Below are positions 26,583 to 50,100 of a DNA stretch of 64,000 nt, piece by piece. The notes under the pieces were generated by a model, which was not told the origin of the DNA, ran no database searches, and saw only the letters and a program-made list of their open reading frames with translations. Origin of the DNA: a virus (lineage: Duplodnaviria > Heunggongvirae > Uroviricota > Caudoviricetes); IMG/VR virus record IMGVR_UViG_3300032053_000009, positions 82,630 through 146,629 of that record. One strand, written 5' to 3'. The translations under genes and the position numbers were made by a program. The first letter of the stretch is position 1. Each line of letters opens with the position of its first letter.

Positions 26583-29500
26583 TTATTTTGAAGTCATGGC
26601 GTCGTCAATGATGTCGAACGCTTGCACTTCAGACAGTTTGAATTGGCTCATTAGATCTTCGGCGATCTCGTCTTCATTAAGATTGCCGAGCTTCAACAAA
26701 TCTTTCACAAGCTGGGCAGCATTGGTGGCGATGTCCGGCTCCGGCGCCCCTGCTTTCGGGAACACGTCTTGCGTCCCGTACTCAACCGGATCTTCCAACT
26801 TGTCCCGATCACGGGCAGCGGGCTGCACATCCTTATCGAGTCCGCTCTTCTCCGGCTCCGTGTCGGTATGAGCGTGCATAGCAGCGGGCTTCACCCACAA
26901 CCACGACACCATCAGCCCGTAGATGTCCGGCACGTCGCCGCCATTGGTCGATGCAAACTGGCTGGCCACGCTCATGGCCTGCTTCTCGTTCAGGAACGGA
27001 GTCTGGCCTGCGTCCACGTGGCAACCAAGCACCTTGCAGGCAATGTCAAGCAGCGCTTCTTGTGGATCGGTGGCGAGCCGTTTGATCTGAACCACCCTGG
27101 GATCATTGGGAAAGCTCGACTCAAGCTCAAGTAACCTATTAAAATCACTGTGTCCATTTGCTTTTGCGATAATCCAGTCATGACCATTTGTCTTCCAGTC
27201 AGGATGAGTGGTGACAATGCGAGCGTACTCCCCCCACAACTTGTCCGTGTCAATCTTCATCGTCGCCACAAATCTGTTTCCGACCTTCTGCATCATCATC
27301 CGGCCATAGGTCTTGGGCGGCGTTGGCGGCGGCACTTGCTTGGGCACACTGACGATCTTGGCGTCCTTGAATCCAGCTACGAAGTCAATCGCCTCCGCAA
27401 TGTCAGCAAACACTTCATGTCCCGATGGCTGACCATCTTCAGCAAAGTACGTCAGCCGCCATCCATCAGCTCTTGTGTCTTTGGACAGCACGGCAGGCTG
27501 CGGGTACAACCCCGCAATGACAGCGCCTTGCTCAGGATCAATGGTTTCCACCAAACGCTGGCGGCGCTCATCCTTGGCTTTCTTCAAATTGATTGGATCA
27601 TTCGGATCAAGCGGCACGAGCTGGTACGCTTCAATCTCATCTTTCGTGAGTGGGCGTGGAAAGTCCACGGTTCCAAATTTGTAATCAGCGTGCGGCTTCG
27701 TTGATTTAGGAATCCAACCTTTGGGCAGCGTGGCGAATCCCGCCGGACGATATGAAAGCGCATACGTGTAAACCTTTTGCGGCTGAGCTGGCTCCGCTGC
27801 GTTGCGTACCCGCATCATCTTGCCAATGATCTTCGGCACGGGGCGGGCGGTCGGCTCCTCCACAGGCGTCTTCAACACAGGCTCCTGGCCAGGAACAATC
27901 TCTGGCGGAACCTCCGGCTCCGGCGGCGCCGTGGGTTCCGGTGGCCGCTGCTGCGTTATCTCTTCCACTGGCGTTGGCGGAAGGATCGGTTTCTCCTGTG
28001 GTCCCACTCCGGCCACATCCTCCGGCTTCGGTTCCTTGGGCGGTGGCGGTTCAATGCCTGTCTGCTTGGCAAGTTGGTCATGGATCTTCCGCACATCCTC
28101 TTTGGTGTACTTCAATTGGTTGCGGCTGAGCCAGGTGTAAATCTCATGCTGAATCGCCTCCATATCCATGCCCTTCAGCTTTTCCAGCGTCACCATTTCC
28201 AGCACTCGGTTCGCTACGTAGACTGGTTGAAGGCTGATCGCCGCTTGACTATCTATTGAGGTGTTAAGCGACTCTCGGCGCACGCTCTCAGATTGCACAG
28301 ATGACACATCCAAATCACTGCCAATGGGTTGCTGTAATCCGTGTGGTGCATTTCTGAGTTGAGGCTCCCGCACTTGCAACACGGTTCTTTCTTTATTTTC
28401 CCCACTGAAACGAGATGTCTTGCCTGCTTTCGTGTTTTGACTTTCATTATCTGTTCTGGTGTTGGAGGTTTTCGCACTCGCACCTTGCGTGGCTTCACTT
28501 CCAAATTGTGGAGAGCGAGATGACACTTGCGGCACATCCACACTATCTCTAAAGGCTTGCCGTGATCGGGATGGTGCATTTGTGAGATCGGATTCCCGCA
28601 ATGAGCGCACGGTTCCATCTTCTTTTCTTGTCCACGTCGAAGATGATTCCAAGCCATCTGACGTGCTCTCTTGCGTGCCAACTGTGCCTCGTTGAGAGGA
28701 TGAGTCTTGCTCCACGTCCTCATGTATTCCCTCATATATGCCCGATGACAATCGAGGCATCGCCCGTTCCCCTTCATTCTCTGCTGGCCGCATTGGCATA
28801 GTTCCGAGTTCATGATCACTGATTTTAGACCATTTTTTAAGACCACTCCATACCTTCATATCCTCAATGGCGACATCCACATCCCCCAATCCTGACCAGG
28901 CTTCAGGTCCTTCCGGTTCGTAGTTGACGCCGGACTCCACGTTGGCGGACACGCTCAGCCGCATCTCGCCGTCCTTCTGTCCCGTCTCTTTATTGATCAG
29001 CTCCACAAACACGTCACCGAACACCACGCCCTCATCCTCGTCAAGGTGTGTGATGGTGATCTGCGGGCGGTACAAAGTAAAATCGAGTTCAAGGTAATCC
29101 GGCACCAGATCCGGCAGCACTTGAATGACTTGATTCTCAACCTCTTCATCGTATTGCCATGCGTGGCCACGGCGCTGCGGCTCGGCAGGCGAGTCCGTTC
29201 GTGGTTCATCAGCCTTCATCACCGTTAAGGGTGGGAGATTAGGCGATCTCGAAGGCGGCTTAACCGCCTCCGGTTTTTGGGGCGGCGGCGCTGGTTTCAC
29301 TGGCTCCACAGGTTTATCACCACGTTCAATGTGATGTGGTTCATTATCAACCTTTCTCGGCTCACCTGGCTCTTGCGCCTGCTTGGTGAGCGCCCAGCTC
29401 GCTTTCTTCGCTACTTTGCGGGCTGTACGAGGTGCTTTAACCTTCTTTTGAACTTTTTTTGTTGATTTTGACGTTCCATGTGGAACTTTTTGACCTGTTT

Positions 29501-30416
29501 TACCCGCTCTCTTGTCATCCATCTCGCACCACCCCTCATCAATGACGTTCTTGATCTCGGACAAATCTTGTGGATTCAATTCCGGCTGTTCATCCACCTC
29601 TCCCATGATCTTTTCCAGATTCTTCCACAGCCAAATGTAGCCAAATTTTTGCAGGTATTTGAAGGTCAGGTTCTCTTCCGAGTCCGGCTCATACGCCTCG
29701 TCCCGCTCCTCGCTGACATCATACGCCTTCTCCATGATGTCCACGAGTTCTTGTTCCAACTCACCCATCCGCTCCTGAACTCTCTTCTGAAACTTTGATC
29801 GAGACAAGGCATCCATAGTTTGTAGTGCCTCTTCAAGCGCCTCAATGTTCTGGATGTCACGCTTGGCGTCGCCAATGGATATGTCCAGCTCCTGCGTGAT
29901 TGCTTCAGCGTCATCTATAATGGAAGAGTAAATCGCTTCAGGATCAAAGTCAGATTCAACCGACCGTGGTTCCTGCTCCCACGTGTCGTTCAGCAAATCA
30001 TAAATGCCATCACTTGTGGTTGCCACCTTATCCGGCGTTTCAAAGCTGATCTCCAACGGATGGCTTGTTCCTTCCACCTTCCACTGCTGATCTCTTATGG
30101 CATCCTTGTACGTGTCAACGACCTCTTCCAGATCGGTTTTAGACAGCCCAGGATATTCAGCCTTCAGCGCATCCCAGTCCACGACAACGTGAACGTCCAG
30201 GTCTGACTTGGAGTTGTACTGCCAGCTCGTGAGGCTACCCAGGATTCTGACAGCGCCAATCCAGTTCACATCTGCCAGGTATTCATTCATCTTCGCCAGT
30301 ATGTCGGCTTTGATATTTTGCTTCAATATTCCATTCTCTTCCCACACGTCTGGGCAGAGTCCTGGCTTTGGATAATCGAGTACGTTCGCTCTCTTAATCA
30401 ATTGTTTTGTGAACAT
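26583..30416 (-). CDS. large protein, 1277 aa, with Pro-rich linker
   Basis: Uninterrupted ORF. It has an N-terminal globular domain, a long central P/E/S-rich disordered region and a C-terminal domain of about 450 aa. Confidence 0.75.
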   Translation of the reverse strand: MFTKQLIKRANVLDYPKPGLCPDVWEENGILKQNIKADILAKMNEYLADVNWIGAVRILGSLTSWQYNSKSDLDVHVVVDWDALKAEYPGLSKTDLEEVVDTYKDAIRDQQWKVEGTSHPLEISFETPDKVATTSDGIYDLLNDTWEQEPRSVESDFDPEAIYSSIIDDAEAITQELDISIGDAKRDIQNIEALEEALQTMDALSRSKFQKRVQERMGELEQELVDIMEKAYDVSEERDEAYEPDSEENLTFKYLQKFGYIWLWKNLEKIMGEVDEQPELNPQDLSEIKNVIDEGWCEMDDKRAGKTGQKVPHGTSKSTKKVQKKVKAPRTARKVAKKASWALTKQAQEPGEPRKVDNEPHHIERGDKPVEPVKPAPPPQKPEAVKPPSRSPNLPPLTVMKADEPRTDSPAEPQRRGHAWQYDEEVENQVIQVLPDLVPDYLELDFTLYRPQITITHLDEDEGVVFGDVFVELINKETGQKDGEMRLSVSANVESGVNYEPEGPEAWSGLGDVDVAIEDMKVWSGLKKWSKISDHELGTMPMRPAENEGERAMPRLSSGIYEGIHEDVEQDSSSQRGTVGTQESTSDGLESSSTWTRKEDGTVRSLRESDLTNAPSRSRQAFRDSVDVPQVSSRSPQFGSEATQGASAKTSNTRTDNESQNTKAGKTSRFSGENKERTVLQVREPQLRNAPHGLQQPIGSDLDVSSVQSESVRRESLNTSIDSQAAISLQPVYVANRVLEMVTLEKLKGMDMEAIQHEIYTWLSRNQLKYTKEDVRKIHDQLAKQTGIEPPPPKEPKPEDVAGVGPQEKPILPPTPVEEITQQRPPEPTAPPEPEVPPEIVPGQEPVLKTPVEEPTARPVPKIIGKMMRVRNAAEPAQPQKVYTYALSYRPAGFATLPKGWIPKSTKPHADYKFGTVDFPRPLTKDEIEAYQLVPLDPNDPINLKKAKDERRQRLVETIDPEQGAVIAGLYPQPAVLSKDTRADGWRLTYFAEDGQPSGHEVFADIAEAIDFVAGFKDAKIVSVPKQVPPPTPPKTYGRMMMQKVGNRFVATMKIDTDKLWGEYARIVTTHPDWKTNGHDWIIAKANGHSDFNRLLELESSFPNDPRVVQIKRLATDPQEALLDIACKVLGCHVDAGQTPFLNEKQAMSVASQFASTNGGDVPDIYGLMVSWLWVKPAAMHAHTDTEPEKSGLDKDVQPAARDRDKLEDPVEYGTQDVFPKAGAPEPDIATNAAQLVKDLLKLGNLNEDEIAEDLMSQFKLSEVQAFDIIDDAMTSK

Positions 30417-34231: not shown

Positions 34232-35998
34232 TCAAGCGGTTTTCCCTGCGTGAAATCTTGCCTTCACTCCCTCGCCCGTATCCAACGACATGGAAACGGT
34301 TTCCCCTTCATCATCTGAAGCGGATAAATTTTCGCTGACGTATTCACCTTCATCAAAGCCAAGCAACCCCAGCGGCTCGATCAAAACCTTGACGGCGCCA
34401 ACACACGTATCCGCCACGTCCTTGCTACCCGTGTCGGGGTGATCGACTTTGAGACCTTTCAAAAGCTCAAGCGCCTTGATTTCAATGATCTGTTTCGGAT
34501 AATTCAACAAACTAATCCGTTGAAAGTAAATTTGTTCCTTGAAATTCTTGTAATCCTGTAGATCCAATCGGTAGGTTGTGCTGGAAATGCCAGCCGCTCG
34601 CAGGTTCTGAACCATCTGCGCTGAGTTCCATTGATCGAAGTAAACGCCTTTGACAATGATCTTGCTGGAAATTTGTTTTATGATTTCTTCAATATTGGGA
34701 AAGCTGACGATGAGCTTCTTCTTCGGGTCTGGCTCCCACGCCGTCACCGCATCTTGAATAAAATTAATAGACGAAGCGCCTTTAGGCAGCATGAAACGTT
34801 CAGCGTGAAATATGGAAAACCCAGCGCTGTCGTTGTTAAGTCCCAGATCAATTGTAATAATATGTTCATGGCGCAAAAATGCTGGCACGTTCCACTTCAC
34901 CAGCCTCTTCATAATGTACTTGCCTTCCGTGTAAGTTTCAAACTCTATTAACGGCTTGCGGTTGTCATCCACGCAAGCGTCCACCATCTCCACCTTCTCT
35001 ATAAAGGGCGACTCCGCTCCTGGCGGCAGGCACATATATTTTGCCTTGGCATCAGTGGGATCTCGGTCGAAATGTTCCTTAAACTCAAGCGGCACTTCAT
35101 AACTTTCAAATGTGAACCACTGACCGGAGAAACATTCCCTGGGTTTGATCTGCCACGTGAACCCTTTGTCGGCGTAGACGTGCAGCTTGTCCTGCGCCCA
35201 GTCGTACATCTTCTCTATGAAGTCCCCTTCGTACCGTGGATAAGAAAGCAGAAAACTTTTAACCGACGTGCCGAACCGTGACTTCGCCGACGAGTCCAAC
35301 ATATTGTAAATCTTGCTGGCATTGCGAGTTTGCGTCTTGTCTTTGAACGCCGAGATCTCGTCGCAAACGTAGGTGAGGATGTTCATACCTTCGGTGGATT
35401 CTTGTTCGGAGTGGCGGGAAAAAGCTCGCAGTCGTTTCGGGAAGAAGATGGAGTTTTTGTTGACCGTGATAACGTTCTCGTATTGCCATTCTTCCGCAGG
35501 CTCGACGAAGCGACCGCTCATTTTAATCGGGTACTTCTGCTTCAGCCACGCCCAATTGAGAACGTTGTTTTTGAGCTTGTCGAAGAAGACGTTGAGCGCC
35601 TGGTCGCTTGAGTACGCCACGTTCACGCAGTCGATGGTGTCCCTCACCGAAATCCCAGGGAACTTGGCTTGCGGGCGCCTCATGCACAACAAAACGTGGA
35701 TCAGGTAAAGAATAATATGGCACGAGATAGTATCTTTACCTGATCCTTTGCCCCATTCCAGCACGGCTGTAGAATTTATGTTGTCAAAAATCTTTTTTGG
35801 ATCGTCGCCAAGCATGAAGTCGGCAACGCTGTACTGTCGGTCGCTATAGGAAGGGTAGTCCATGTGAAACGGAGATGTGATAAAATTGTGAAACGTCATC
35901 GGCTCTTCATCCCAAACAACGATGTGTCGATCTCCGGTAACGGATTTCGACTTTAATCCCGCCGCTGCTTCCGTGATGTAATTGTCAAGTGAGAGCAT
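34232..35998 (-). CDS. terL: terminase large subunit, 588 aa
   Basis: Walker A (GKGSGKDT) and Walker B-like (VCDEISAF) motifs are present. The C-terminal nuclease region contains ITIDLGLNNDSAGFSIFHAE. Confidence 0.8.
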   Translation of the reverse strand: MLSLDNYITEAAAGLKSKSVTGDRHIVVWDEEPMTFHNFITSPFHMDYPSYSDRQYSVADFMLGDDPKKIFDNINSTAVLEWGKGSGKDTISCHIILYLIHVLLCMRRPQAKFPGISVRDTIDCVNVAYSSDQALNVFFDKLKNNVLNWAWLKQKYPIKMSGRFVEPAEEWQYENVITVNKNSIFFPKRLRAFSRHSEQESTEGMNILTYVCDEISAFKDKTQTRNASKIYNMLDSSAKSRFGTSVKSFLLSYPRYEGDFIEKMYDWAQDKLHVYADKGFTWQIKPRECFSGQWFTFESYEVPLEFKEHFDRDPTDAKAKYMCLPPGAESPFIEKVEMVDACVDDNRKPLIEFETYTEGKYIMKRLVKWNVPAFLRHEHIITIDLGLNNDSAGFSIFHAERFMLPKGASSINFIQDAVTAWEPDPKKKLIVSFPNIEEIIKQISSKIIVKGVYFDQWNSAQMVQNLRAAGISSTTYRLDLQDYKNFKEQIYFQRISLLNYPKQIIEIKALELLKGLKVDHPDTGSKDVADTCVGAVKVLIEPLGLLGFDEGEYVSENLSASDDEGETVSMSLDTGEGVKARFHAGKTA

Positions 35999-39148: not shown

Positions 39149-40468
39149 TCAGGATTTAGATTGCGGAACGTGAATTTTACCAAACGCAGGGTCAGGATGG
39201 ATTTCAATTGGCGGGCACAGCCCTTTGCGCCGGATCTTCAGCACCTTCAAATCCGCTTCCTTTGCCGTCCGCTGCTCTTCAGTCTGACTGATTTTAATGA
39301 GCACGTCCACGTTCTGAGCCACCGCTTTCGAGAACGCAATGTCGTCCGTGGAGTCCTCACTCTTCTTTTGTTTGAGTCCTGAAATCTGCTGCGCCGCTGT
39401 CCAGATAGCGATATTGAACTGACGAGCGGTCTCTTTGAGCTTCTTGCTTATGATCGCCAGCGCCTTCCAATCATAGAAGTCAAGCTCGCCAAGTCTGGTT
39501 TCCATGATCTGCATATAGTCCACCACCACCAGCTCAAGATTGCATCGACGCCTGTACTCACGTATTTTAGCTTTGAGCAAGTCCACGGTACAGCCTGTTG
39601 GAATATCCAAGACAAACAATTTGTTCTTACGCCTGGCGCCGTAGTGCTTAACCGCTTCACGCATCCGCTCTATCTCAGCCTTGCTTGCCGACGCTTCATC
39701 AAGCGAGATCACTTCCACGTTAGCGATCCGACCGTACAAGCGCCGCAGAATCTGAAAGCCGGACATCTCAATCGTGATCAACATCGTGTCATGGCCAGCC
39801 ATGTAGGATTCGATGGCAAAGTTATAAAGCGCTGTGCTCTTGAACCCTGCGGTCTTTCCCACAATTAAACCCACCTCAGCGGGCGCCAGACCCTTCAGAT
39901 GGTCATCCAGAGGAGCGATCCCAGTTGGAATGTAAATATACTTTTCAGGATGATCCTTCATGTCATGGATGGCTGACACCACCCGATCCACGCTGGCCGA
40001 CAACTCGTACTCCTGCAAGACATCTGACCCAACAAACAGCGGCTCATCAAGCGTGTTCCGCAGCGCTCGCTCGCCATTTATAAGATCGCCCTTGTCAATC
40101 ATTTCGCCAGCGTTCTTAATCGAGTTCATCAGTGACCGTGCCCGCCAGAGCTTAAGCACTTCTTCTTTGCAGAACGCAAAGTCCTGATCTGGCGACGTGT
40201 CTACGAAAAGAGACTTGGCCAAGGTATAGTAATTTTCCTTATCCTCAACCTTCATGTCCTCTTTATCAAGATAAGCCAAAAGCTCATTGACCGTTATTTT
40301 CTTACCAAACTTATCGTAATGGGAAAGAACGTAGGTATAGATCTTAACGTGCGTCTGACTTGAGAAAATGGCAGGCGGGAACTTAACCGATAAGTCATCC
40401 AGCTTGGTCACGTCAAGAAGAGCGTAGCGGATTAAGTCTTTCTCCGCCCGAACATTAACGTACTGCAT
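39149..40468 (-). CDS. dnaB: DnaB-like replicative helicase, 439 aa
   Basis: It has an N-terminal DnaB-like domain, a deviant P-loop (GKTAGFKST) and the H2 motif LVVVDYMQIM. Confidence 0.65.
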   Translation of the reverse strand: MQYVNVRAEKDLIRYALLDVTKLDDLSVKFPPAIFSSQTHVKIYTYVLSHYDKFGKKITVNELLAYLDKEDMKVEDKENYYTLAKSLFVDTSPDQDFAFCKEEVLKLWRARSLMNSIKNAGEMIDKGDLINGERALRNTLDEPLFVGSDVLQEYELSASVDRVVSAIHDMKDHPEKYIYIPTGIAPLDDHLKGLAPAEVGLIVGKTAGFKSTALYNFAIESYMAGHDTMLITIEMSGFQILRRLYGRIANVEVISLDEASASKAEIERMREAVKHYGARRKNKLFVLDIPTGCTVDLLKAKIREYRRRCNLELVVVDYMQIMETRLGELDFYDWKALAIISKKLKETARQFNIAIWTAAQQISGLKQKKSEDSTDDIAFSKAVAQNVDVLIKISQTEEQRTAKEADLKVLKIRRKGLCPPIEIHPDPAFGKIHVPQSKS

Positions 40469-41075
40469 CAGTCCCCCCTTTCAAATTCTCAACAACAACC
40501 CCCAGTGTAGCCAAAGGAATAAGAACATAGCTCAGTCCATCATGAGCAAAAGCAGAAGGACGGCTGCTGAACGCATCAAGCTCTTTCTTGGTGATCGTAT
40601 AAGACTTCTTATTGGTCTTCATCGGCAATGACTTTATAGCTTCCGGCACCCATTGTTCTTTCTTTTGATGACTGGTTAGAAACTCATAGTCAGGTTCTCG
40701 GAAAACCACATGAATGCGATTCGTTGGACAACCCTTAAAAGCAAAGACAAAGATCGGCATAAGACCAACTTGGTCAGCTTCACGATTGTTCTTATCCACA
40801 AGCCTCATATCCAAATGATAGACCGGAACACTCTTCGATCCTTTCTTAGACTTCTCCCTGCGATGCTTAGCTTCGACAAGAAACTGTCTCGGAAGCCACG
40901 GCACGGCTGTCCTGACATCGCCCTTGAAAGACGCCATCGCTCCCGAAGACGGGACTCGAAACGTGCGCTTGATATTGCCGTTCCCGTCCATGATGGGGTC
41001 TTGAACGGTCTGACCCGTGAACCTTAAAAAATAAGCCTCAAGCTCGTGCTCAAGTCCGTAGCCTTTATGACTCAT
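40455..41075 (-). CDS. Hjc-like (archaeal-type) Holliday junction resolvase/PD-(D/E)XK nuclease, about 207 aa
   Basis: The layout KGYGLEHELEAYF...SSGAMASFKGDVRTA...LVEAKHR matches Hjc with its catalytic E-x-K. Confidence 0.4.
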   Translation of the reverse strand: MSHKGYGLEHELEAYFLRFTGQTVQDPIMDGNGNIKRTFRVPSSGAMASFKGDVRTAVPWLPRQFLVEAKHRREKSKKGSKSVPVYHLDMRLVDKNNREADQVGLMPIFVFAFKGCPTNRIHVVFREPDYEFLTSHQKKEQWVPEAIKSLPMKTNKKSYTITKKELDAFSSRPSAFAHDGLSYVLIPLATLGVVVENLKGGTDAVR

Positions 41076-41379
41076 CAACCCCCCTAAACATCGACTCCCG
41101 ACTCTCCTGCTCATCCTTGATCAGCTTGGCCAGCTTGTCATCAGGCAACTTCGAGCGCCTGGCGTGTTCCTTCAAAGCCTCACGAATATAATCATCCAAC
41201 GTAAACGCCTCACCAAAATGTCCCTTCAAATAAAGCTGGTACGCCACATCTTTCTCTTCCTCGCTCAATTGACGTTTGATGGGCGCCGCCTCTTCAAGTG
41301 TTTTCACGTACCCGTCCCGAAACGTCTTCCATTGCCGTGTGGCGTGCCTGATCACATCTTCGGCAGTGATCCGCTTCAC
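41065..41379 (-). CDS. hypothetical protein, 104 aa
   Basis: Small ORF packed between neighbouring genes. Confidence 0.4.
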   Translation of the reverse strand: MKRITAEDVIRHATRQWKTFRDGYVKTLEEAAPIKRQLSEEEKDVAYQLYLKGHFGEAFTLDDYIREALKEHARRSKLPDDKLAKLIKDEQESRESMFRGVDES

Positions 41380-42113
41380 CCGTAAGCCTCATCCGCTGCG
41401 GCATCATAAGTCATGGTCGCCTTGGACACGCCATCCACCAGCTTGACCATAAACATCCGGTCGATGGCGTCCATCGCCCGACCGTGGCGCACCACGCTGT
41501 CGGCGCTCGTGACAATAATCATCTGCTGATCAAACTTCTTCGCCACGCTCTTAAGAAACTGGTAGGTCTTAACCACGTACCCATTCTCGTTGTCGATGGA
41601 GTTGAGGAAGCGCAAGCTCTCATCCAGAACAATGGGTCCACCCAACGGCGGATGCACCATCTTCTTGAACATGACCCGCAGAAGCACGGACACGATGTCC
41701 CGCACACCGCCGCCCCTGCCATCCATCACGTCCTCAAGGTCGCCATTATCACCCGTCAGGTACACGTTGGCGTTGACTCGGCTTGATTTGGTATCGAACT
41801 CGATCTTGAGCTGAATGCGCCGAGGCTCAAAGATCTGAAGTAACCCAGCGTTAATGGTGTCCTCAATGCGCCCGATGGACTTCCGACGGCTGTAGTCCGA
41901 CACCACTCGCAAGAAAGCGCCCGCCCGCTCCAAAGCGCTCAACTCGCCGTTCAAAATGTCCAACCGCTTGTGGGTCTTGGAAACCGCCTCCTGCCCCTTT
42001 TTCTGCATCTCACGCAAAGCTGCGTAACGCTGAAGTGCGTCACCCGACCGCTTCAATAATTGATCATTTGACATTCTGCCTCCAAACGTTAAAGGACGCC
42101 CCTGAGATGCCAC
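41376..42113 (-). CDS. ABC-ATPase C-terminal half, SbcC/Rad50-like (coiled coil + signature/Walker B/H-loop), 245 aa
   Basis: There is no Walker A. A signature-like GRGGGVRDIVSVLLRV is followed by a Walker B/D-loop (IVLDESLRFL) and an H-loop (IIVTSADSVVRH). The N-terminal part is coiled coil. Confidence 0.5.
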   Translation of the reverse strand: MASQGRPLTFGGRMSNDQLLKRSGDALQRYAALREMQKKGQEAVSKTHKRLDILNGELSALERAGAFLRVVSDYSRRKSIGRIEDTINAGLLQIFEPRRIQLKIEFDTKSSRVNANVYLTGDNGDLEDVMDGRGGGVRDIVSVLLRVMFKKMVHPPLGGPIVLDESLRFLNSIDNENGYVVKTYQFLKSVAKKFDQQMIIVTSADSVVRHGRAMDAIDRMFMVKLVDGVSKATMTYDAAADEAYG

Positions 42114-42690
42114 GAGGCTGAGTCGTCGCCACCAAAAGATAACCCTGGGTCACTTGATCCAAAATCCGATCCGTATTGAAATGAAAAATACCACCATGCT
42201 TCGAGCCATCCATTTTTTGGTTGGGAATTGTGTACGTGACGACGAGCTTGGCACCAGCCCCAAACATGGCTTGCAAAACAAACTCGACCAGGTGCTCATC
42301 CATGACGTGGTACAAAACATCTATGCTCATAACAGCGCCCACATCCGCACCAAACAACCCGTTAAACTTTCTCTTAATTGTCGCAGCGCTGTAGTTACCA
42401 AAGTGCCCCTGCTCAAAAATGAAATTCTCTTTCTTCACCATCTCTCGACATTGCTGAACAGCGCTTAACGAAATATCGACACCAAAATATTGTTTGCAAT
42501 TCAGAAGATTAACCATGTGTCCATCGCCGCACCCAAAATCGAACACCGACTCAACGCCATACTTGGCAAACAAATCGTTCAAATACTGTGCCTTGAACTT
42601 CAGCAACTCGCCACGACTTCCTTGACCTGAGCCGAGCTTTTCCTTGTAGCGTTCTTCCCAATATTTTTGTTCAAACTGATCGTTCATCAA
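42064..42690 (-). CDS. class I SAM-dependent methyltransferase, 208 aa
   Basis: Motif I (VFDFGCGDG) and a typical Rossmann order are present. Confidence 0.6.
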   Translation of the reverse strand: MMNDQFEQKYWEERYKEKLGSGQGSRGELLKFKAQYLNDLFAKYGVESVFDFGCGDGHMVNLLNCKQYFGVDISLSAVQQCREMVKKENFIFEQGHFGNYSAATIKRKFNGLFGADVGAVMSIDVLYHVMDEHLVEFVLQAMFGAGAKLVVTYTIPNQKMDGSKHGGIFHFNTDRILDQVTQGYLLVATTQPRGISGASFNVWRQNVK

Positions 42691-42926
42691 ACCTCGACCT
42701 TGGCAAGTAAATTCTGAATTTTATCGCTCTCAGCCTCAATCTGTTCTTCCAAATCCTTAATGGTTGAATCCAACTTCTCCGGCTCTACACCTTCCGCCTT
42801 AATAGACTCAATCACTTGCGCTTTCCGTGCCTCCAAAGACTCAAGCTGAGTTTTGAGCCGGACGTGCTGCTCCTTGGCTCGTTGATAATTATCTTGAAGC
42901 TGCGCTATCTTTTTCAAATCAACCAT
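42687..42926 (-). CDS. coiled-coil protein, 79 aa
   Basis: Heptad-rich and helical. Confidence 0.45.
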   Translation of the reverse strand: MVDLKKIAQLQDNYQRAKEQHVRLKTQLESLEARKAQVIESIKAEGVEPEKLDSTIKDLEEQIEAESDKIQNLLAKVEV

Positions 42927-42934
42927 GACGCCTC

Positions 42935-43144
42935 CTATCTGATTTCTATTCCGCTGCTGACCGTTGACTCAATCGACAAACCTTTATCATCAGTCACAAC
43001 CAATGTCCACACCGCCGCAACCAATCCATACCTCTCGCACATAATGTTTTGACAGTAATGGATTGCTGGCTCTAAAAAATTAAAACTACCCATGACCTCT
43101 TTCAAAGTCGTTTTACATTTCCAACATAGCTTGACTATCTTCAT
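42935..43144 (-). CDS. small CxxC protein, about 69 aa
   Basis: The sequence contains KLCWKCKTTL...YCQNIMCERYG. Confidence 0.35.
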   Translation of the reverse strand: MKIVKLCWKCKTTLKEVMGSFNFLEPAIHYCQNIMCERYGLVAAVWTLVVTDDKGLSIESTVSSGIEIR

Positions 43145-44064
43145 GCTACCTTCCGCAGATACTTCCGGCACAGCTCCACAACACTGTCGTCAATATGCTC
43201 ATTCTTCGCCACCTCAGCCAGCATCTCCTCAATGTTCGTGGCGCCAATGTGAGTTTGAATGGCGTTCGTAAACTCTTCAGCCAAGTTCCGGTCGTCCTGA
43301 ATGGCTTGCTGAATCTGCTCGGTTTGAAACACGATGTCCCACGGCTGGGCACTCTTGAACGGAACGAGTTGGTATTTGAAATTAATACCATCAAAGTCAA
43401 CGAAAACCATGTTTGGAATACGCTTCATATCCGCCTCAAGCCTGGTCAGCCGAGTCATGCTGCCTGGGTTGATGAACAGCGTCCGATTGTTGCTGTACTT
43501 GAATGGAATATGATAGTGGCCGCATAGCACCAGATCAGCATCCACCTTGAGCTTTGACACCAAAAGATGCTTGAACTGGACTTCTTCATTCACCAGCGCA
43601 TCGTGTACAACCATGATCACGAGCGCATACTGATCAAAATCCTTAACAACAAATCGGTTGGGATCATCCTTCTCAAAATAATGAGAGAACCGTATCAGAA
43701 CTTTCTTACCGTTCACGGGCACGATCATGTCTTGCTTGGGAATGATGATGTGCTTGGTATGCTCCATGAGTCCAAGCGCTGTCGTATCCAGAAGCGTCTG
43801 CCACGAATCGCTGCGGAAGTCATGATTGCCAACGCAGAGATGCACATCCTTATCCATCAAGCGCATGGCATCCACGATCACCTGCACGTCGGGGTTATCA
43901 GTATGGAAGAGATCTCCGCCGTGAAGTATGAAATCAACCTTTTTCTCATCAGCGACCTTGAACACCTCATGCCACTTCGCCATGATCTGGAAATAGAAAT
44001 CAGGCGTCCTGAACTTTGGCGTGTTGCGAGTGATGTGGGAATCAGTTACGAACAACAATTTCAT
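43141..44064 (-). CDS. sbcD: SbcD/Mre11-family metallophosphoesterase nuclease, 307 aa
   Basis: The motif series DSH...GGDLFH...GNHD...GHYH is that of a calcineurin-like phosphoesterase. Confidence 0.7.
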   Translation of the reverse strand: MKLLFVTDSHITRNTPKFRTPDFYFQIMAKWHEVFKVADEKKVDFILHGGDLFHTDNPDVQVIVDAMRLMDKDVHLCVGNHDFRSDSWQTLLDTTALGLMEHTKHIIIPKQDMIVPVNGKKVLIRFSHYFEKDDPNRFVVKDFDQYALVIMVVHDALVNEEVQFKHLLVSKLKVDADLVLCGHYHIPFKYSNNRTLFINPGSMTRLTRLEADMKRIPNMVFVDFDGINFKYQLVPFKSAQPWDIVFQTEQIQQAIQDDRNLAEEFTNAIQTHIGATNIEEMLAEVAKNEHIDDSVVELCRKYLRKVA

Positions 44065-44312
44065 AATTCGTCCTTAACGGCGTCACTCACCTTATCAACA
44101 GCGTCGCTGACGCTATCCATCGCCTTACCAACATGATCCATTGCGTTGCCGACGTGCTCCATCGCTTTGTCAATCTCTGCACACACAGGACAAGGATCTT
44201 TTTTGCATTTATGTTCCTTGCCATTGATCGTCGTCGTGCGATTGATAGAAATATTGATGTTATGCGAACTCACCGCTCTCTTTGCGAAGTCGCTCCACCA
44301 GCGCCAGGTCAT
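44061..44312 (-). CDS. small CPVC protein with heptad-like AMDxVx repeats, about 83 aa
   Basis: The sequence KDPCPVCAEIDKAMEHVGNAMDHVGKAMDSVSDAVDKVSDAV shows the repeats. It forms an ATGA overlap with the SbcD start and begins immediately after the MazG stop. Confidence 0.4.
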   Translation of the reverse strand: MTWRWWSDFAKRAVSSHNINISINRTTTINGKEHKCKKDPCPVCAEIDKAMEHVGNAMDHVGKAMDSVSDAVDKVSDAVKDEL

Positions 44313-44313
44313 A

Positions 44314-44658
44314 TCAAAACTTCTTCCCGCCGTGGCGGTAGCTCCGTTTGGTGTTGTACTCCATTTTCTTGCGCAGGATGACGCCGAAGTTCCAACCCTT
44401 GGCTGCAAAATAATCAGCGATACGAATCACACAATCGGCCAGCTCCACGGCCTCGCCTTCCGGCTTACCTGTCTTCGGATCTTCCCAATAATGCTCTTCG
44501 CCCTTACGAACACACTCCGTCGCCTCTCCAATTTCGCTATGGAATAAGGCGTGCATCTCCAAGGCCGTACGTTGTGATTCGTACCACCCCTTTTCTCTGG
44601 CGGTTTTGTGCACCGCTCGCATGAAAGAATTGAGTCTCATGTCATCCATTATATTCAT
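44314..44658 (-). CDS. mazG: MazG-like nucleoside triphosphate pyrophosphohydrolase, 114 aa
   Basis: The sequence has LEMHALFHSEIGEATECVRKG and EGEAVELADCVIRIADYFAAKGWN. Placement of the acidic residues is MazG/HisE-like. Confidence 0.65.
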   Translation of the reverse strand: MNIMDDMRLNSFMRAVHKTAREKGWYESQRTALEMHALFHSEIGEATECVRKGEEHYWEDPKTGKPEGEAVELADCVIRIADYFAAKGWNFGVILRKKMEYNTKRSYRHGGKKF

Positions 44659-45443
44659 TCCTCTTTTGCGCTCGCCACGTCTGTGATATGAAAATTCTCA
44701 ATATCCAAATCCACATCCTTGGCGATGTTCTTGAGACGTTCTGACAACCACTTCAACTGAGACAAATGTTCATCCGGTTTGTGATTCAAAACAAACCGTA
44801 CAGCTTCGCCAATATCCTTACCGCTCTCCCACCGATTCGACAACTGAACACCAGACGCCTTCTCAAACTCTTCCACCTTCTCGGACAAACTTTTGAACTT
44901 CTCTTCCGTGTTTTTGTGCTGCCAATCCAAATCGTTACGCAAATCATTCTCACGCTGCTTGAACGCTTCATCCAGCTTTTGCTTAAACAAATCCTTCGCT
45001 ACCGTACCGTCAATAATATGACGCATCATAGACATAAAAAATGGACGACTGACGGCACCTTTGTCTCGATAAGCTGACTCAACAACAATCCTCAACACGG
45101 CGCCGTGAGGCACGATCAGCCCCCAATCGGCAGGCAACTCACCTGGTTTAATAATGGCCGGATTGGTCACGACAATGTACCAACGATCACAATGAACAGC
45201 GATTGGATCTGCTTTCTCTGGTTCTTTCAATTCCTTGAGCCAGTCACCACGAAGCGATTTAATCTCAAACCCAATAATTTCAAGACCACGTGATGGCCAA
45301 ATACCAAGCGCTATCAAATCCGCTGACCTGTTCCGGTATCCGGTTCGATCTGAACACTCTCGAATCGTCACCCACCCTGGCGGAGCGTACCGAGCCTCCA
45401 ACCGAATCAACATATCATGTGTTGTCAAAGGAGTCGTATTCAT
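44655..45443 (-). CDS. PD-(D/E)XK-like nuclease with C-terminal coiled coil, 262 aa
   Basis: ADLIAL and GFEIKSLRG supply the D and E-x-K residues. Confidence 0.4.
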   Translation of the reverse strand: MNTTPLTTHDMLIRLEARYAPPGWVTIRECSDRTGYRNRSADLIALGIWPSRGLEIIGFEIKSLRGDWLKELKEPEKADPIAVHCDRWYIVVTNPAIIKPGELPADWGLIVPHGAVLRIVVESAYRDKGAVSRPFFMSMMRHIIDGTVAKDLFKQKLDEAFKQRENDLRNDLDWQHKNTEEKFKSLSEKVEEFEKASGVQLSNRWESGKDIGEAVRFVLNHKPDEHLSQLKWLSERLKNIAKDVDLDIENFHITDVASAKEE

Positions 45444-45655
45444 GCTTTCAAATAATCTTTATCAACCGGAAGCTCAGCCTTCGTAGCGTGCGTCCCGCCA
45501 TACCACGTATCCCGTGATCGCACGGTCGCAGCAAACGCCTCTAAGCACATCTGAACGTATTTAGCTAAAATAAAATCGGGCGTATCGGAAAGGTTTTCTT
45601 GACTGTGTTTATTGATCAGATGTTGAAGCTCTGTGACAAAATTCTCATTTCCCAT
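45440..45655 (-). CDS. hypothetical protein, about 71 aa
   Basis: It starts immediately after the stop of the SbcC N-terminal half. Confidence 0.35.
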   Translation of the reverse strand: MGNENFVTELQHLINKHSQENLSDTPDFILAKYVQMCLEAFAATVRSRDTWYGGTHATKAELPVDKDYLKA

Positions 45656-45656
45656 A

Positions 45657-46922
45657 TCACATCCTCCCCAATATTTTTTCCATTTCTTGATTCGGAATGC
45701 TGCGCAAACAAAACGGACATACATCAAGCTCACTTAACTCACCACGCAACAAATCCAAAATAGATTTGTTCTTAGCCACGTCAGCGCCCAGCTTCTTAAT
45801 CGCATAATCAACATCATCCAGCTCACGACCATATTTACTCAGCACATTCAAACGATTGGACATGACCGCACAAAGAGTAAAACGTCCACCTATGTCATCA
45901 AAATCCATCCCCAACAACTGATCGGATACTGTTGTCAATTGCGAAATGCTGATCTCGTTCTGTCGATAATGCTCACGCAACGGCACCAACCGATCCCACC
46001 GCTTCTGAGCACGTAACACAACATCAAATGAGACCGTTTTCATCGCCTGATCCAAAATTACCATTGCGCCTTGAGCAGATTTAATCTCAACATTCAAAAC
46101 ATTCCAATCATGATGCAGAAGAAATAATCGTTTTTGCTTCTCGTGCGCCCGCAACAAGCGGTCGAACGAAATTGAATTGACCACCACATCAAGAACAAGC
46201 ATCTCGCTTTTCGCCGCCTCAATATCAACATTCAAAAATCCAAAATCATGGCGCAAGACCGTCAGCTTATCCAGCTTCTGCGAATCCACGTAATAACTCT
46301 TGACCGCCTCATCGAGAGCAAGATACATCGGCTCTTTAATAAGAAGCTCATCACGAACATCCTTCAACTCTTTCTCTTGCTGGGTCAAGATTCCTTCAGA
46401 AATCTTGATGTCCTTATCGGTTTGATTGGAATCTTTCTGCATCTCACGCAGCGCACGATCAATTACGTCCAGCCCAGAGATCATGCCCAGCATCTTAGCC
46501 CGCACCGGAGCCGACTCGGACAGCAAAAACGGCTCCACACCCTGCTTACTGATCGTAACCGGAATCTCATTGTCATCAATAAACACACTGGCGCCGCCAA
46601 GAACCTCGATCACCTGCTTGGGCACGGAATCACCCAGACGCTCAAACTCTTCACCGTTCACGATGTACTTATTAACTTTGGCTCCTTTAATACGAGCGAC
46701 CGATGAGCCATCATCAAATTCAGCCGTGACTTCAAAGCAATCCTCGCCATGACGAACATAGGCATTGTTGACATCGTTTTGAAGTACAGCAGCGAGCGCA
46801 CGAATGACGGCGGACTTGCCTTCATCAGAAGAGCCGACAATCACATTCATCCCAGGATGAAAGTTGATCGTGGTGTTTTGGTGAGATTGGAAGTTATGCA
46901 GTATGAGCTTTTTCAGGTTCAT
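45657..46922 (-). CDS. sbcC: SbcC/Rad50-like ATPase N-terminal half ending at a CPFC zinc hook, 421 aa
   Basis: The N-terminus (KLILHNFQSHQNTTINF...VIVGSSDEGKSAVIRAL) carries Walker A. A long coiled coil follows. CPFC occurs 17 residues before the stop. Confidence 0.6.
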   Translation of the reverse strand: MNLKKLILHNFQSHQNTTINFHPGMNVIVGSSDEGKSAVIRALAAVLQNDVNNAYVRHGEDCFEVTAEFDDGSSVARIKGAKVNKYIVNGEEFERLGDSVPKQVIEVLGGASVFIDDNEIPVTISKQGVEPFLLSESAPVRAKMLGMISGLDVIDRALREMQKDSNQTDKDIKISEGILTQQEKELKDVRDELLIKEPMYLALDEAVKSYYVDSQKLDKLTVLRHDFGFLNVDIEAAKSEMLVLDVVVNSISFDRLLRAHEKQKRLFLLHHDWNVLNVEIKSAQGAMVILDQAMKTVSFDVVLRAQKRWDRLVPLREHYRQNEISISQLTTVSDQLLGMDFDDIGGRFTLCAVMSNRLNVLSKYGRELDDVDYAIKKLGADVAKNKSILDLLRGELSELDVCPFCLRSIPNQEMEKILGRM

Positions 46923-49900
46923 TGGTTGTTGGTTCGTTTTTCATATTCAAATTCTCAAATGACTTTTCAAAGTGAAGACCACGACTTGACTTACTGGCTG
47001 TACACATGATCACGTCACCAATACGAATCTTGTCTTTTTCGTACTCATAATCAGTGGGGTTCATGTACAGCTCAACACGAGAATATAAATTATCCTCTAA
47101 GGTAATAACACAAAATTCACGATTATTCTTCTTGGACTTTTTGATCTCAACATCATCAACAACACCAGCCCACTTCCACGACGACTTAGCCACGTTATCA
47201 TAGTCCGACATTAGCCAGGCTTGCGCTCGATCAATCGTATCCTTGATGTCTTTATTGATCAACAACGGATGGCGGGTCAAATAAATACCAAGCGCCTCTT
47301 TCTCCATCAACAGATAGTCTAATGACGGCGGAAAGTCCTGATCAAACTCGCCCTTGCCGTACAGGTCATCATAATCAGGTTGAAGAGTTTTCTCTTTCTC
47401 AAACCGATCCAGGGCGCCTGATTTATACAGTGCTCGCACCACACGACGATCCAGAATACGCTTGCTGCCAATCTTCTTCATCATATCTTTCAGACTGACA
47501 AAAGGACGCTTCAACAAAATCTCATCAATCACGGTTTCCGATACGCTCTTAATGTTACCAAGCCCCCAAAGCAAACGCCCATCCATGCTGTACGCAAAAC
47601 CCTTGTCAGAATGATTCACGTCCGGCAAACGTGGCTTGATGTCTACCCGCACTGCCATCATGACGTACCGCTTAATGTCGTCAATGTCTTTCTCAGCATG
47701 ATTGAATAACGACAACACAAATGCCTTGGGATAATAATGCTTGATGTGCGCCATCCAATAACTCATGGTCGTGTACTCAACAGCGTGCGAGCGATTGAAG
47801 GTATACTCCGTATACGTAGAAACCAAATCCCACAACGCATCAGCTTGCTTGACAGTCAAGCCATTCTTCATGCAGCCGTCACGGAACGTATGAATGTGCT
47901 TCAACACAGCAGCGTCCTTGACCTCAGCAGCGATCTTGTTTTTCGCCATAGCTTTTCGGAACGTGTCGGCAACACTATACGACAAGCCAGCCGCCTTGCT
48001 AATGATCTCCATAATCTGCTCTTGGTAAATCAATGTCCCATACGTGTCCTTCAAAATATCATGCACGGCTTGAATCGGATGGTACATAGCGCCTGGACGA
48101 GGCTCGTATTTATTCTTTATATATGTTTGATCCATTCCATGACTGAGTGGACCTGGACGATAAATAGCCGTCATGTCATGCAGCTCTTGAAAACAATCCG
48201 GCTTAATATTCTGAATCAAAACACGCAACTGAGCACTCTTATCAAATTGAAAAATACCATCCACATCGCCCTTGGAAAACATCTTGTAAATGGCTGGATC
48301 AGTGGTGGGCAGATTCTCTAAATCAAGATCAGCCCCATACAACTCCTTAACCCGCTTCACCATGTCGGCAATGATGGTCACGGTTCTCAAGCCCAAGATG
48401 TCCATCTTAATCAACCCAAAATCCTGCATGGTCTCCATGTCAAACTGACAAACAGTTTGAATCACGTCATCTTCATTGCGTGACTTCATCAAAGGCACGA
48501 TCTCGTTAAGAGGCTTGCTGGCGATCACGACACCTGCGGCGTGCTTCCCGAACTGACGCAGGCTGCCGTCAAAAAACGTCACATGATCAAACAGACCTTT
48601 ATATTTATTCTGAAGTGCCTGAGCTGTCTTGTTGTTTTGTAGCGCCTCTTCGACACTCTTGTACTGATCCCAATCAATTGCCGCTGTAATGGTATTCATC
48701 ATAGCGAACGGAATCTTCAACACCCGCCCCAGATCCTTCATGGCTGATTTCACTGACCGCTCAGAATAAGTCGCTATCTGCGCCACGTGATCTTTCCCAT
48801 AACGGTCAATGATGTAGGTCAAGATCTCGTTACGGCGATCATGACAGAAGTCCATGTCAATATCAGGATAGTCGGTACGAAGCGGACTTATGAATCGCTC
48901 AAAAATAAGATTATGCTTAATCGCATCCACGCCAGTGATCCCCAGGAGCCACGCCACCACAGACGATCCAACCGAACCACGTCCGACGCCATACGGAATT
49001 CCTTTCTCTTTGGCGAAGCGAACAATGTCCCATACCACCAAGAAGTAATTATAGAAGCCGCTTGACTTGATCAAATCAGATTCGTACTTCACACGCTTTT
49101 CATACAAAGCCAAATCAGAAATCTTACCCTCTTTCAATTTCTTAGCCCAACCATCACGAACCAACTGATCGAACATCTGAATGTTCTCGGCATCATTATT
49201 TGAATAAGCCGGAAACATATTGACCACCTTCGGCAACAGTGGCTCCTGTTCAGTATCAACCACCATATCAGCCAGCACAGCCGTGTTCTCGATAGCCTCA
49301 TCCAAATCCTTCTCATCCATGAACGTATTATTCTTCAAAAACAAATAACGTAGCTCTTCGGGCGCCATCAAATGATAGGTCTCGCCCTTGAGCTTCGGAC
49401 GAGTGAGGCTTTCAGGATCGGTGTGCATTTGCATATTGATCAACAAATCCTGACGTTCATGATCTTCCGGTTCAAGATAATGAGCGTCCAAGCTCACCAC
49501 CATCGGGATGCCTTCAAGTTTGTGAACCTGATACAAAGCGCTGTTGACTTTAACCTGCTCAGGAAAATTGTGCGGCATTAACTCCAACCAATAACGAGTG
49601 CCCAAGTTATGACGAATCAACTGCACTCGTTTCAACACTTCCTCAAAATCATCACCACGCAAAATCATTTGAGCCACGTCATTCTTAATGCAACCGGACG
49701 TGACCATAAGACCATTTTGATTTTCAAACAGAGCCGGATAATCAATGCGAGGTTTGTAGTAATAGCCTTCCAGATAAGACAGCGAGGAGAGCTTAAAAAG
49801 GTTTTTAACGCCCGTGGAGTTCTGGGCGTATACGGTGATATGGTTGGTAAGTTCTTTGCGGTGCTCGGAGTCACGCACCTTAATATCCGGCGTGATATAA

Positions 49901-50100
49901 AACTCAGAGCCAAGAAGTGGCACGAGTCCGTTCTCTTTGCAATGTTTATAGTGCTCGACCACGCCCGCAACGTTGCCATGATCGGTAAGAGAGAGACCCA
50001 CGTAGCCAACAGCCTTGGCTTTCTTAGCGGCTGACTCTGCACGTATCAATGAATCTTGAAATGAAAATGCACCGTGAGCGTGCAAACAAGCTGCCCGCAT
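46894..50100 (-). CDS. dnaE: DNA polymerase III alpha subunit (DnaE-type replicase), 1068 aa
   Basis: An N-terminal PHP domain (CLHAHGAFSFQDSL...LTDHGNVAGV) is present. The length matches PolIII alpha. The RBS is AAAGGGAGGGG. Confidence 0.85.
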   Translation of the reverse strand: MRAACLHAHGAFSFQDSLIRAESAAKKAKAVGYVGLSLTDHGNVAGVVEHYKHCKENGLVPLLGSEFYITPDIKVRDSEHRKELTNHITVYAQNSTGVKNLFKLSSLSYLEGYYYKPRIDYPALFENQNGLMVTSGCIKNDVAQMILRGDDFEEVLKRVQLIRHNLGTRYWLELMPHNFPEQVKVNSALYQVHKLEGIPMVVSLDAHYLEPEDHERQDLLINMQMHTDPESLTRPKLKGETYHLMAPEELRYLFLKNNTFMDEKDLDEAIENTAVLADMVVDTEQEPLLPKVVNMFPAYSNNDAENIQMFDQLVRDGWAKKLKEGKISDLALYEKRVKYESDLIKSSGFYNYFLVVWDIVRFAKEKGIPYGVGRGSVGSSVVAWLLGITGVDAIKHNLIFERFISPLRTDYPDIDMDFCHDRRNEILTYIIDRYGKDHVAQIATYSERSVKSAMKDLGRVLKIPFAMMNTITAAIDWDQYKSVEEALQNNKTAQALQNKYKGLFDHVTFFDGSLRQFGKHAAGVVIASKPLNEIVPLMKSRNEDDVIQTVCQFDMETMQDFGLIKMDILGLRTVTIIADMVKRVKELYGADLDLENLPTTDPAIYKMFSKGDVDGIFQFDKSAQLRVLIQNIKPDCFQELHDMTAIYRPGPLSHGMDQTYIKNKYEPRPGAMYHPIQAVHDILKDTYGTLIYQEQIMEIISKAAGLSYSVADTFRKAMAKNKIAAEVKDAAVLKHIHTFRDGCMKNGLTVKQADALWDLVSTYTEYTFNRSHAVEYTTMSYWMAHIKHYYPKAFVLSLFNHAEKDIDDIKRYVMMAVRVDIKPRLPDVNHSDKGFAYSMDGRLLWGLGNIKSVSETVIDEILLKRPFVSLKDMMKKIGSKRILDRRVVRALYKSGALDRFEKEKTLQPDYDDLYGKGEFDQDFPPSLDYLLMEKEALGIYLTRHPLLINKDIKDTIDRAQAWLMSDYDNVAKSSWKWAGVVDDVEIKKSKKNNREFCVITLEDNLYSRVELYMNPTDYEYEKDKIRIGDVIMCTASKSSRGLHFEKSFENLNMKNEPTTNEPEKAHTA

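Follow-up and report, generated by a model that had tools for sequence, protein, structure and literature searches.

To our knowledge, all Rad50, SbcC and structural maintenance of chromosomes (SMC) proteins studied to date are single chains, in which two coiled-coil strands tie the ATPase lobes to a hook or hinge. The Rad50-Mre11 pairs of phages T4 and T5 are gp46/gp47 and D13/D12, respectively, and both ATPases, gp46 and D13, are single polypeptides. Here we describe a putative natural departure from this design in a 64,000-nucleotide stretch, hereafter the window, of the virus record IMGVR_UViG_3300032053_000009 (positions 82,630 to 146,629), a tailed phage with portal, protease and terminase genes outside the region of interest. 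Two minus-strand open reading frames (ORFs), at 45657-46922 and 41376-42074, are identified from sequence and modelled fold as the N- and C-terminal parts (N-half and C-half) of one Rad50/SbcC-type ATPase; they lie 3.58 kb apart with eight other ORFs in between.

Like the T4 and T5 systems, the locus pairs an Mre11-type nuclease with a small, CxxC-hooked Rad50-type ATPase within a phage replication/recombination module, but the ATPase is provided by two or three gene products and the phage nuclease gene lies between them. As in Rad50-Mre11 and SbcCD in general, Walker A, Q-loop, a signature-like motif, Walker B, D-loop and the Mre11 motifs are all present, the CPxC hook is followed by a tail similar to that of Pyrococcus furiosus Rad50, and the pieces are closer by sequence to archaeal Rad50/Mre11 than to Escherichia coli SbcCD. 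Compared with Rad50 and SbcC, a first chain break falls 4-48 residues past the hook (16 here) and, in most cases, a second some 80 residues beyond it, the ascending arm is here longer than the descending one, and the H-loop His is lost in this clade. The defining feature of Rad50 that the locus lacks is a single chain whose two coil strands join both lobes. Separate-chain lobes forming one ATP-binding cassette (ABC) head are familiar from engineered Rad50/SMC head constructs (1f2t/1f2u, 1ii8, 3qkr, 5h66 and 1xex), and the chains of these constructs are the top structural matches of both natural halves. The constructs are, however, laboratory truncations without coil and hook, whereas the natural split keeps arm and hook on the N-terminal chain.

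In Bacillus phage 0305phi8-36, gp8 was reported as an Mre11/Rad50 fusion protein, and one SbcC P-loop NTPase segment "was not observed" (Yoshida, Claverie and Ogata 2011; PMC3175470). Our comparison places this phage in the same family, with gp8 as the nuclease fused to the N-half, gp7 as a third small piece termed S and gp5 as the C-half, the difference being that the nuclease of the window is a separate gene. The segment missing from the published account is gp5, encoded three genes downstream, an identity that explains its apparent absence. A precedent for SbcCD parts turned into separate small proteins is given by LmuB and LmuC of Lamassu (PMC12663957). LmuB resembles the present ATPase as an SMC-like protein with a CxxC hook and short coils, and its profile is the best unsplit match to the halves. 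It is, however, one polypeptide, whereas the locus described here carries a full Mre11 nuclease and sits in a replication module or beside recA, not in defence islands. PADLOC detected neither the LmuA effector nor LmuC, returning just LmuB-like similarity of the ATPase pieces, and the cassette is not Lamassu.

Public names of the pieces are generic ("AAA family ATPase", "hypothetical protein", "chromosome segregation ATPase"), and genome annotation at present mislabels them. No description of a split Rad50/SbcC was found in the full-text literature searched, a set without the ABC-ATPase classification of Krishnan et al. 2020 (Nucleic Acids Res), reportedly a comprehensive one, which might mention a split. 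The family is apparently undescribed.

Two ORFs with complementary Rad50 motifs

The N-half (45657-46922, 421 residues) was recognised by family search. Its translation contains a Walker A motif or P-loop, GSSDEGKS, at residues 30-37 (46812..46835, minus strand, as for all features below); across 56 homologues G35, K36 and R41 never vary, and neither does Q127 of the Q-loop in the family alignment. The best NCBIfam matches are archaeal Rad50 models, aligned at positions 1-190 of 878, with RecN and RecF scoring lower. An AlphaFold2 (AF2) model with a predicted local distance difference test (pLDDT) score of 82.9 matches SMC heads and the N-terminal chain (1f2u_A) of the Rad50 catalytic domain from P. 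furiosus, and predicts helices for residues 151-399, about 250 residues in length. These lead to a CPFC zinc-hook motif at residues 402-405 (45708..45719) with invariant C402, P403 and C405, after which the chain ends in the tail LRSIPNQEMEKILGRM. The initial annotation had described Walker A, a long coil and CPFC in this ORF, which is borne out, except that the stop lies 16 residues past the second Cys and not 17. A profile built from the last ~65 residues of 17 family members (65 columns) gave P. furiosus Rad50 hook structures as its best matches (1l8d, 1e-5; 6zff, 1.7e-5), with the alignment spanning the hook motif. Because these are the best matches in the whole PDB, the CPFC is assigned as a genuine Rad50 hook, and by the same alignment the 16-residue tail is taken as the first few turns of the descending helix.

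The C-half was detected through phrog_15167 (5e-23). Its ORF extends upstream to a GTG at 42113 (245 residues), but the real start is almost certainly the ATG at 42074, giving 232 residues (41376-42074), because a GGAGG lies 4 nt upstream of it, it overlaps the stop of the preceding methyltransferase gene by 11 nt and all homologues start there. In the numbering of the 245-residue ORF, a signature-like RGGG is found at residues 133-136 (41706..41717); distant members all keep G134 and G135, and almost all keep G136. It is followed by IVLDES at residues 161-166, of which IVLDE (161-165; 41619..41633) comprises Walker B and the catalytic Glu with the D-loop next; L163, D164 and E165 are invariant in the family. 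No P-loop (Walker A) is present. The opening helix, signature-like motif and Walker B/D-loop, as well as the lack of Walker A, had been proposed in the initial annotation and were confirmed in translation, alignment and the AF2 model. The H-loop that it also listed was not, since the canonical His is replaced by Ser (VTS at 41503-41511, within IIVTSAD). This position is Ser or Asn in the close clade; His is kept by 60 of 76 relatives in the alignment and by 114 of 149 cluster representatives (~77-79%).

The AF2 model of the C-half (pLDDT 93.6; predicted template modelling score, pTM, 0.77) consists of one 80-residue helix and then ABC lobe II, and its best Foldseek matches are the C-terminal chains of SMC and Rad50 heads. 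With the broad family profile, the best hit in the PDB was 3qkr_B, the C-terminal chain of P. furiosus Rad50, aligned along its entire length (1.6e-9), followed by other Rad50, SMC3 and SMC heads. This result needed a broad alignment of diverse members, as a narrow C-half profile gave no meaningful PDB match and the window sequence alone gave a marginal one to the C-lobe of Chaetomium thermophilum Rad50 (E 0.017). Pfam returned just sub-threshold SMC_N matches, in 5 of 11 aligned family members. RecF and RecN, which could have been better relatives of the C-half, are neither among the 60 profile matches listed nor among the top 50 Foldseek matches. The mapping of the two ORFs before and after the hook, as anticipated, is seen in Rad50 models, with the N-half at positions 1-190 of 878 and the C-half homologue of Calditerricola (locus L008) at positions 800-894 of 895. 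The window C-half is also homologous to gp5 of 0305phi8-36 (1e-17) and gp35 of Bacillus phage vB_BboS-125 (1e-15). Each half should need the other, because the N-half has no lobe II and the C-half no P-loop.

Between them, ORF 43141-44064 encodes a 307-residue nuclease of the Mre11/SbcD family (Metallophos_2, 1.5e-15; NCBIfam mre11, 3.2e-12), in which the Mre11 motifs DxH, GD, GNHD, H and GHxH are all invariant. Its family profile matched Mre11 structures best (8e-15), with E. coli SbcD at 6e-5. We assign this nuclease as the partner of the split ATPase.

The split across phages and Bacillota, and a probable third piece

A nucleotide search with the region and a tblastn search with the C-half gave no match in phage genomes. 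Searching with the N-half led to the Bacillus phages 0305phi8-36 and vB_BboS-125, in each of which a second, short "ATPase" (gp5 and gp35, respectively) has its own gene a little further downstream; N-half, S and C-half correspond to gp8, gp7 and gp5 in the former and to gp32, gp34 and gp35 in the latter. Among 5.8 billion proteins searched, 115 relatives of the N-half were retrieved, all of 242-540 residues, and in 112 of them the C-terminal end is 0-32 residues away from a single CPxC. With the C-half profile, an exhaustive HMMER search gave 2,241 cluster representatives at E<=1e-3 (523 at <=1e-10), and the best 150 of the 2,241 are all 182-323 residues long. No ORF bearing both halves was found in about 170 loci examined, related phages included. 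Natural fusions occur in two directions, joining the nuclease to the N-half (0305phi8-36 gp8; L001:7966-10275) or S to the C-half (L173 and L174).

Gene order was compared in locus samples drawn from tighter alignment subsets, which are biased towards two subfamilies. The bacterial sample comprises 80 loci kept of 322 stretches with one N-half subfamily, at one genome per GTDB species, and the viral sample 80 loci of 288 IMG/VR contigs encoding another. In bacteria, nuclease, N-half, S and C-half are contiguous in that order in 69 of 80 loci. In 50 of 80 the flanks of the cassette are cinA-recA(-recX) on one side and rny-ymdB-spoVS on the other, across several orders of Bacillota (for example L008:7012-10250), and its carriers include Thermoactinomycetaceae, Halalkalibacter/Alkalihalobacillus/Shouchella, Clostridia, Thermoanaerobacterales, Halanaerobiales, Symbiobacteriaceae and Tissierellia. 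Such a fixed place beside recA suggests a housekeeping role in repair. The viral order is N-half, nuclease, (S), C-half in 56 of 80 loci, with 1.05-4.33 kb from the end of the N-half to the start of the C-half; most of the remaining contigs end too early to tell. A nuclease gene between the halves is therefore normal for phages. The nuclease gene itself was detected in all 80 bacterial and in 68 viral loci; most of the 12 viral loci without it end within ~1.5 kb of the N-half, while L132 has 3.1 kb of room. Altogether, the C-half accompanies the N-half in 125 of the 160 scanned loci.

All pieces are under purifying selection, as evidenced by the ratios of non-synonymous to synonymous substitution rates (dN/dS) between the window and L171, a close relative from another sample (N-half 0.094, S 0.070, C-half 0.050, nuclease 0.011). 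The layout is repeated in independent assemblies from other samples (L171, L172 and L004). The initial annotation had regarded the arrangement as an unusual natural split; the split itself stands, but it is neither peculiar to this phage nor a product of the genes that now separate the halves, being the fixed, ancestral architecture of a large family rather than a local accident. The interesting object is thus the family rather than this one phage. We give about even chances to the broader proposal that the cassette is a widespread form of Mre11-Rad50 with a hetero-oligomeric Rad50, in which hook and ascending arm are carried only on the Walker-A lobe, and the Walker-B/signature lobe with its short helix and a small coil protein are subunits of their own. 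This form would be adjacent to recA in many Bacillota and present in hundreds of phages.

A protein of ~77-92 residues, S, is encoded between the halves in every well-sampled locus. In the window it is a 79-residue helix-turn-helix (coiled-coil) protein (42687-42926) with homology to 0305phi8-36 gp7 and BboS-125 gp34. Its fold pattern is that of two helices, the first one long, connected by a short turn that contains Gly (G-V/Y/I-x-P in this clade), and Pfam holds no model for it. Of the 80 bacterial loci, 79 have a detected S between the two halves. In phages the S hidden Markov model (HMM), which is weak for such a short coiled-coil-like protein, picked it up in 10 of 56 loci, and a counterpart of ~80 residues, found by position, adjoins the start of the C-half in most phage loci, usually overlapping it. 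In some phages, namely L173 (5378-6241) and L174 (6001-6972), S is fused to the C-half; the HMM score for these fusions is marginal by itself, and the assignment draws mainly on gene context. The order in L173 is RecA, a NusG-like gene, an N-half of 290 residues with CPFC 16 residues from its end, the nuclease, Endo VII and a 287-residue S+C protein, with no separate S gene. From Walker A to the hook its arm measures 241 residues and from hook to signature 207 (16+191), the two proteins totalling 577 residues. T4 gp46 is of about that size, and the arms of P. furiosus Rad50 are about 410 and 350 residues. By these lengths, the L173 arms appear balanced like those of a whole small Rad50. On the unsplit LmuB profile, the window N-half covers positions 3-344 and the Calditerricola C-half 410-586, leaving an S-sized gap.

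Because of its position, the S+C fusions, the balanced two-piece arms and the S-sized gap on LmuB, S is probably a third piece of the ATPase forming the upper part of the descending coil. It should also be needed, because a 232-residue C-half with a single 80-residue helix cannot span to the hook alone. On this reading, the common form of the family is a Rad50 cut twice: the cut just after the hook had been recognised correctly in the initial annotation, which counted two pieces where there are three. In analogy to LmuC, S might instead be the helix-loop-helix with which Mre11 binds Rad50, detached from the nuclease. We regard this as less likely, given that S is found fused to the N-terminus of the C-half, that the arm lengths balance on such a fusion and that the nuclease retains ~60 conserved C-terminal residues of its own.

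Proposed assembly and alternative explanations

It is likely that the region encodes a complete Mre11-Rad50-type machine for processing DNA ends and hairpins, with the Rad50 subunit built from three polypeptides. This proposal draws on piece-by-piece homology, constant joint occurrence and gene order, complementary motifs, purifying selection and the balanced two-piece forms. In the model, the N-half would provide the Walker-A lobe, the whole ascending strand, the CPxC hook and, for ~16 residues, the start of the descending strand, while S and the 80-residue N-terminal helix of the C-half would give the rest of that strand, and the C-half the signature motif, Walker B and the D-loop. By comparison with the engineered two-chain constructs, the N- and C-halves would join non-covalently in trans into one ABC head. 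The C-half helix may pair antiparallel with the base of the N-half coil, recreating the Mre11-binding site seen in 3qkr, and S may pair higher up, continuing the descending strand to the 16-residue post-hook tail. The nuclease would dock on the base of the coil, and two such assemblies would dimerise through ATP at the heads and Zn at the hooks. Our confidence in this exact arrangement is much lower than in a functional split Rad50. In the phage, the machine may process ends and hairpins for recombination-dependent replication, like T4 gp46/47; a role in replication and recombination is proposed because DnaE, DnaB and primase or RecA genes are the neighbours.

Several observations weigh against this interpretation, or at least against its details. 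The H-loop His is missing in this clade, suggesting that ATP turnover may be slow or altered. The pTM of the N-half model is 0.39, so that its helix packing is not readable. Alignment reveals a 46-residue tandem duplication of a helix plus SFD unit in the ascending coil (N-half ~264-309; 45993..46131), without a matching change of length in the C-half. It is missing from P0014, an 81%-identical relative of 375 residues, and from P0016, and was not seen by the repeat finder TRF at the DNA level; the helix breaks of the AF2 model fall at its repeated (S/D)FD motifs. The ascending arm of the window, from Walker A to CPFC, is 372 residues long against 216 (16+79+121) for the descending one, a surplus of about 100 residues beyond a balanced Rad50. 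Across the family the N arm is variable (median 429 in bacteria and 310 in the phage subfamily) and the C arm nearly constant (125 vs 111). Such an imbalance implies that ~100 residues in the N-half coil do something other than pair with S and the C-half, be it folding back, pairing across protomers or binding another partner. In addition, 11 bacterial loci (L052, L053, L056, L059, L060, L063, L066, L073, L075, L083 and L089) have nuclease, N-half and S, and the next 8 kb hold no detected C-half. Eight of these loci continue with a rimO-like radical-SAM ORF and a pgsA-sized ORF of ~205 residues (domains confirmed in L059 and L063); other ORFs follow in L052, and the sequence ends soon after S in L073 and L075. 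Finally, the assignment of S to the coil draws on position, size, fusions and weak HMM scores, and is put forward as provisional.

The most serious competitor to a repair or recombination nuclease is a conflict system derived from SbcCD, acting in anti-phage defence in bacteria and in counter-defence or superinfection exclusion in phages. LmuB is the closest unsplit PADLOC profile, Lamassu has been reported as SbcCD-derived with its SbcD parts separated (PMC12663957), and the absent H-loop His is reminiscent of the changed ATPase motifs described for short Lamassu (PMC12663957). The core-genome site of the bacterial cassettes (recA/recX-rny in 50 of 80 loci, several orders) is nevertheless fixed in a way atypical of defence islands, the phage copies lie in a replication/recombination module with DnaE, DnaB, primase or RecA, and the Mre11 active site is complete with no effector-type partner, which makes a conflict system unlikely. 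The same LmuB similarity, found among the best PADLOC matches of the N-half and of the L008 C-half homologue, bears on the idea that the 232-residue protein comes from another ABC or SMC-like system (RecF, RecN, SMC, an Abi/OLD/Gabija-type ATPase or Lamassu LmuB) and is a neighbour of the N-half only by coincidence. In profile and fold searches, SMC and SMC3 heads come close to Rad50 in score, and the window C-half by itself has just the marginal Rad50 match (E 0.017). Against such an origin, neither RecF nor RecN is among the C-half matches listed, the window C-half, S and nuclease have no PADLOC match, no LmuA/LmuC-like partner accompanies the Mre11-type nuclease in the cassette, and two halves of complementary motif content occur together in 125 of 160 loci; we consider it very unlikely.

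The pieces could also be what is left of an sbcC gene that mobile or cargo genes interrupted in this phage lineage, now decaying or only partly functional, as cargo of differing content lies between them in close relatives (a methyltransferase in the window and L004, not in L171 or L172) and homing-endonuclease genes occupy the same junctions in BboS-125, L009 and L173. Such a history is most improbable for a split that is also found in bacterial operons without inserted genes and with overlapping stop and start codons, that recurs in thousands of clusters with its break point fixed a few residues after CPxC, and that keeps its catalytic motifs, except the H-loop His, at dN/dS values of 0.05-0.09. 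A sequencing, assembly or frameshift artefact, for which the origin of the window from a metagenomic contig is the single point found in favour, is scarcely conceivable: eight ORFs fill the 3.58 kb between the halves, a 100%-identical N-half is recorded in three sources, and the same layout, maintained under purifying selection, is found in independent samples, isolate phage genomes and isolate bacterial genomes. The initial annotation had asked for such an artefact to be ruled out, and these comparisons do so.

If the split-Rad50 reading is correct, a conserved natural cut after the hook would show that covalent continuity of the descending strand is dispensable, and a naturally cut hook-head strand would offer a direct test of how coiled coil and hook signal to the ATPase head. 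Supply or exchange of subunits, namely S and the C-half, may regulate the nuclease, and the natural split would provide ready-made separation-of-function subunits.

Inserted genes and organisation of the window

All genes at 39-50 kb of the window are on the minus strand and close-packed, neighbours overlapping at start and stop codons, and promoter- or terminator-like sites between the pieces show no excess over expectation. A DnaE-type polymerase, recognised by family search, is encoded upstream of the N-half (46894-50100), and the C-half is followed by two further ORFs (41065-41379 and 40455-41114) and DnaB (39149-40468). The remaining ORFs between the halves are a small ORF with PHROG matches that is absent in L004 (45440-45733), a 262-residue MmcB-like protein (44655-45443), a MazG-like pyrophosphatase (44314-44658; PHROG matches), a second small ORF (44061-44408), a 78-residue ORF (42935-43171) next to S, and an S-adenosylmethionine-dependent methyltransferase (42064-42690; Methyltransf_31/25/11). 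Family searches thus recovered the nuclease, methyltransferase, MazG-like and small ORFs that had been proposed from the letters, and the suggested PD-(D/E)XK nuclease agrees with the 262-residue protein, which has PHROG matches and a close homologue with a weak MmcB-like PF06319 match that fits this fold. The two small ORFs as called mechanically (115 residues for 44061-44408 and 97 for 45440-45733) overlap their upstream neighbours by 95 and 77 nt, respectively. Gene calls for their counterparts in close relatives are 73-82 and 70 residues, and the true starts are probably further downstream.

We interpret the methyltransferase, MmcB-like, MazG-like and small ORFs as cargo, inserted later at gene junctions and not part of the system. 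Four ORFs separate the N-half from the nuclease in the window and none in L004, where the nuclease directly follows the N-half. Window and L004 alike have the methyltransferase between S and the C-half; L171 (6762-7696, 93% identical) and L172 (6762-7705, 68%), in which S and the C-half abut or overlap, lack it, and the S/C junction seems to be a recurrent insertion site. Homing-endonuclease genes are found at cassette junctions elsewhere, namely HNH-AP2 in BboS-125, HNH in L009 and Endo VII in L173. The 3.5-kb stretch between the halves is accordingly the normal nuclease gene of the family plus later insertions, and the 3.58-kb gap falls at the upper end of the viral range because of the extra cargo.

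Elsewhere in the window, two very large ORFs (19608-26570, 2,320 residues; 26583-30416, 1,277 residues) gave patchy matches to PHROGs of unknown function and are presumably virion or tail proteins. Several relatives carry a PF27249 (MJ0330_N) gene with one or two inteins and an HNH domain, 900 to >1,288 residues in length (L004:16324-19026, L005:7078-9780, L006:8813-10999 and L172:12809-14705), and the copy in the close relative L171 is intein-free with 565 residues. By gene order alone, the counterpart in the window would be 34232-35998, a 588-residue ORF that matches PHROGs of the terminase large subunit and looks intein-free.

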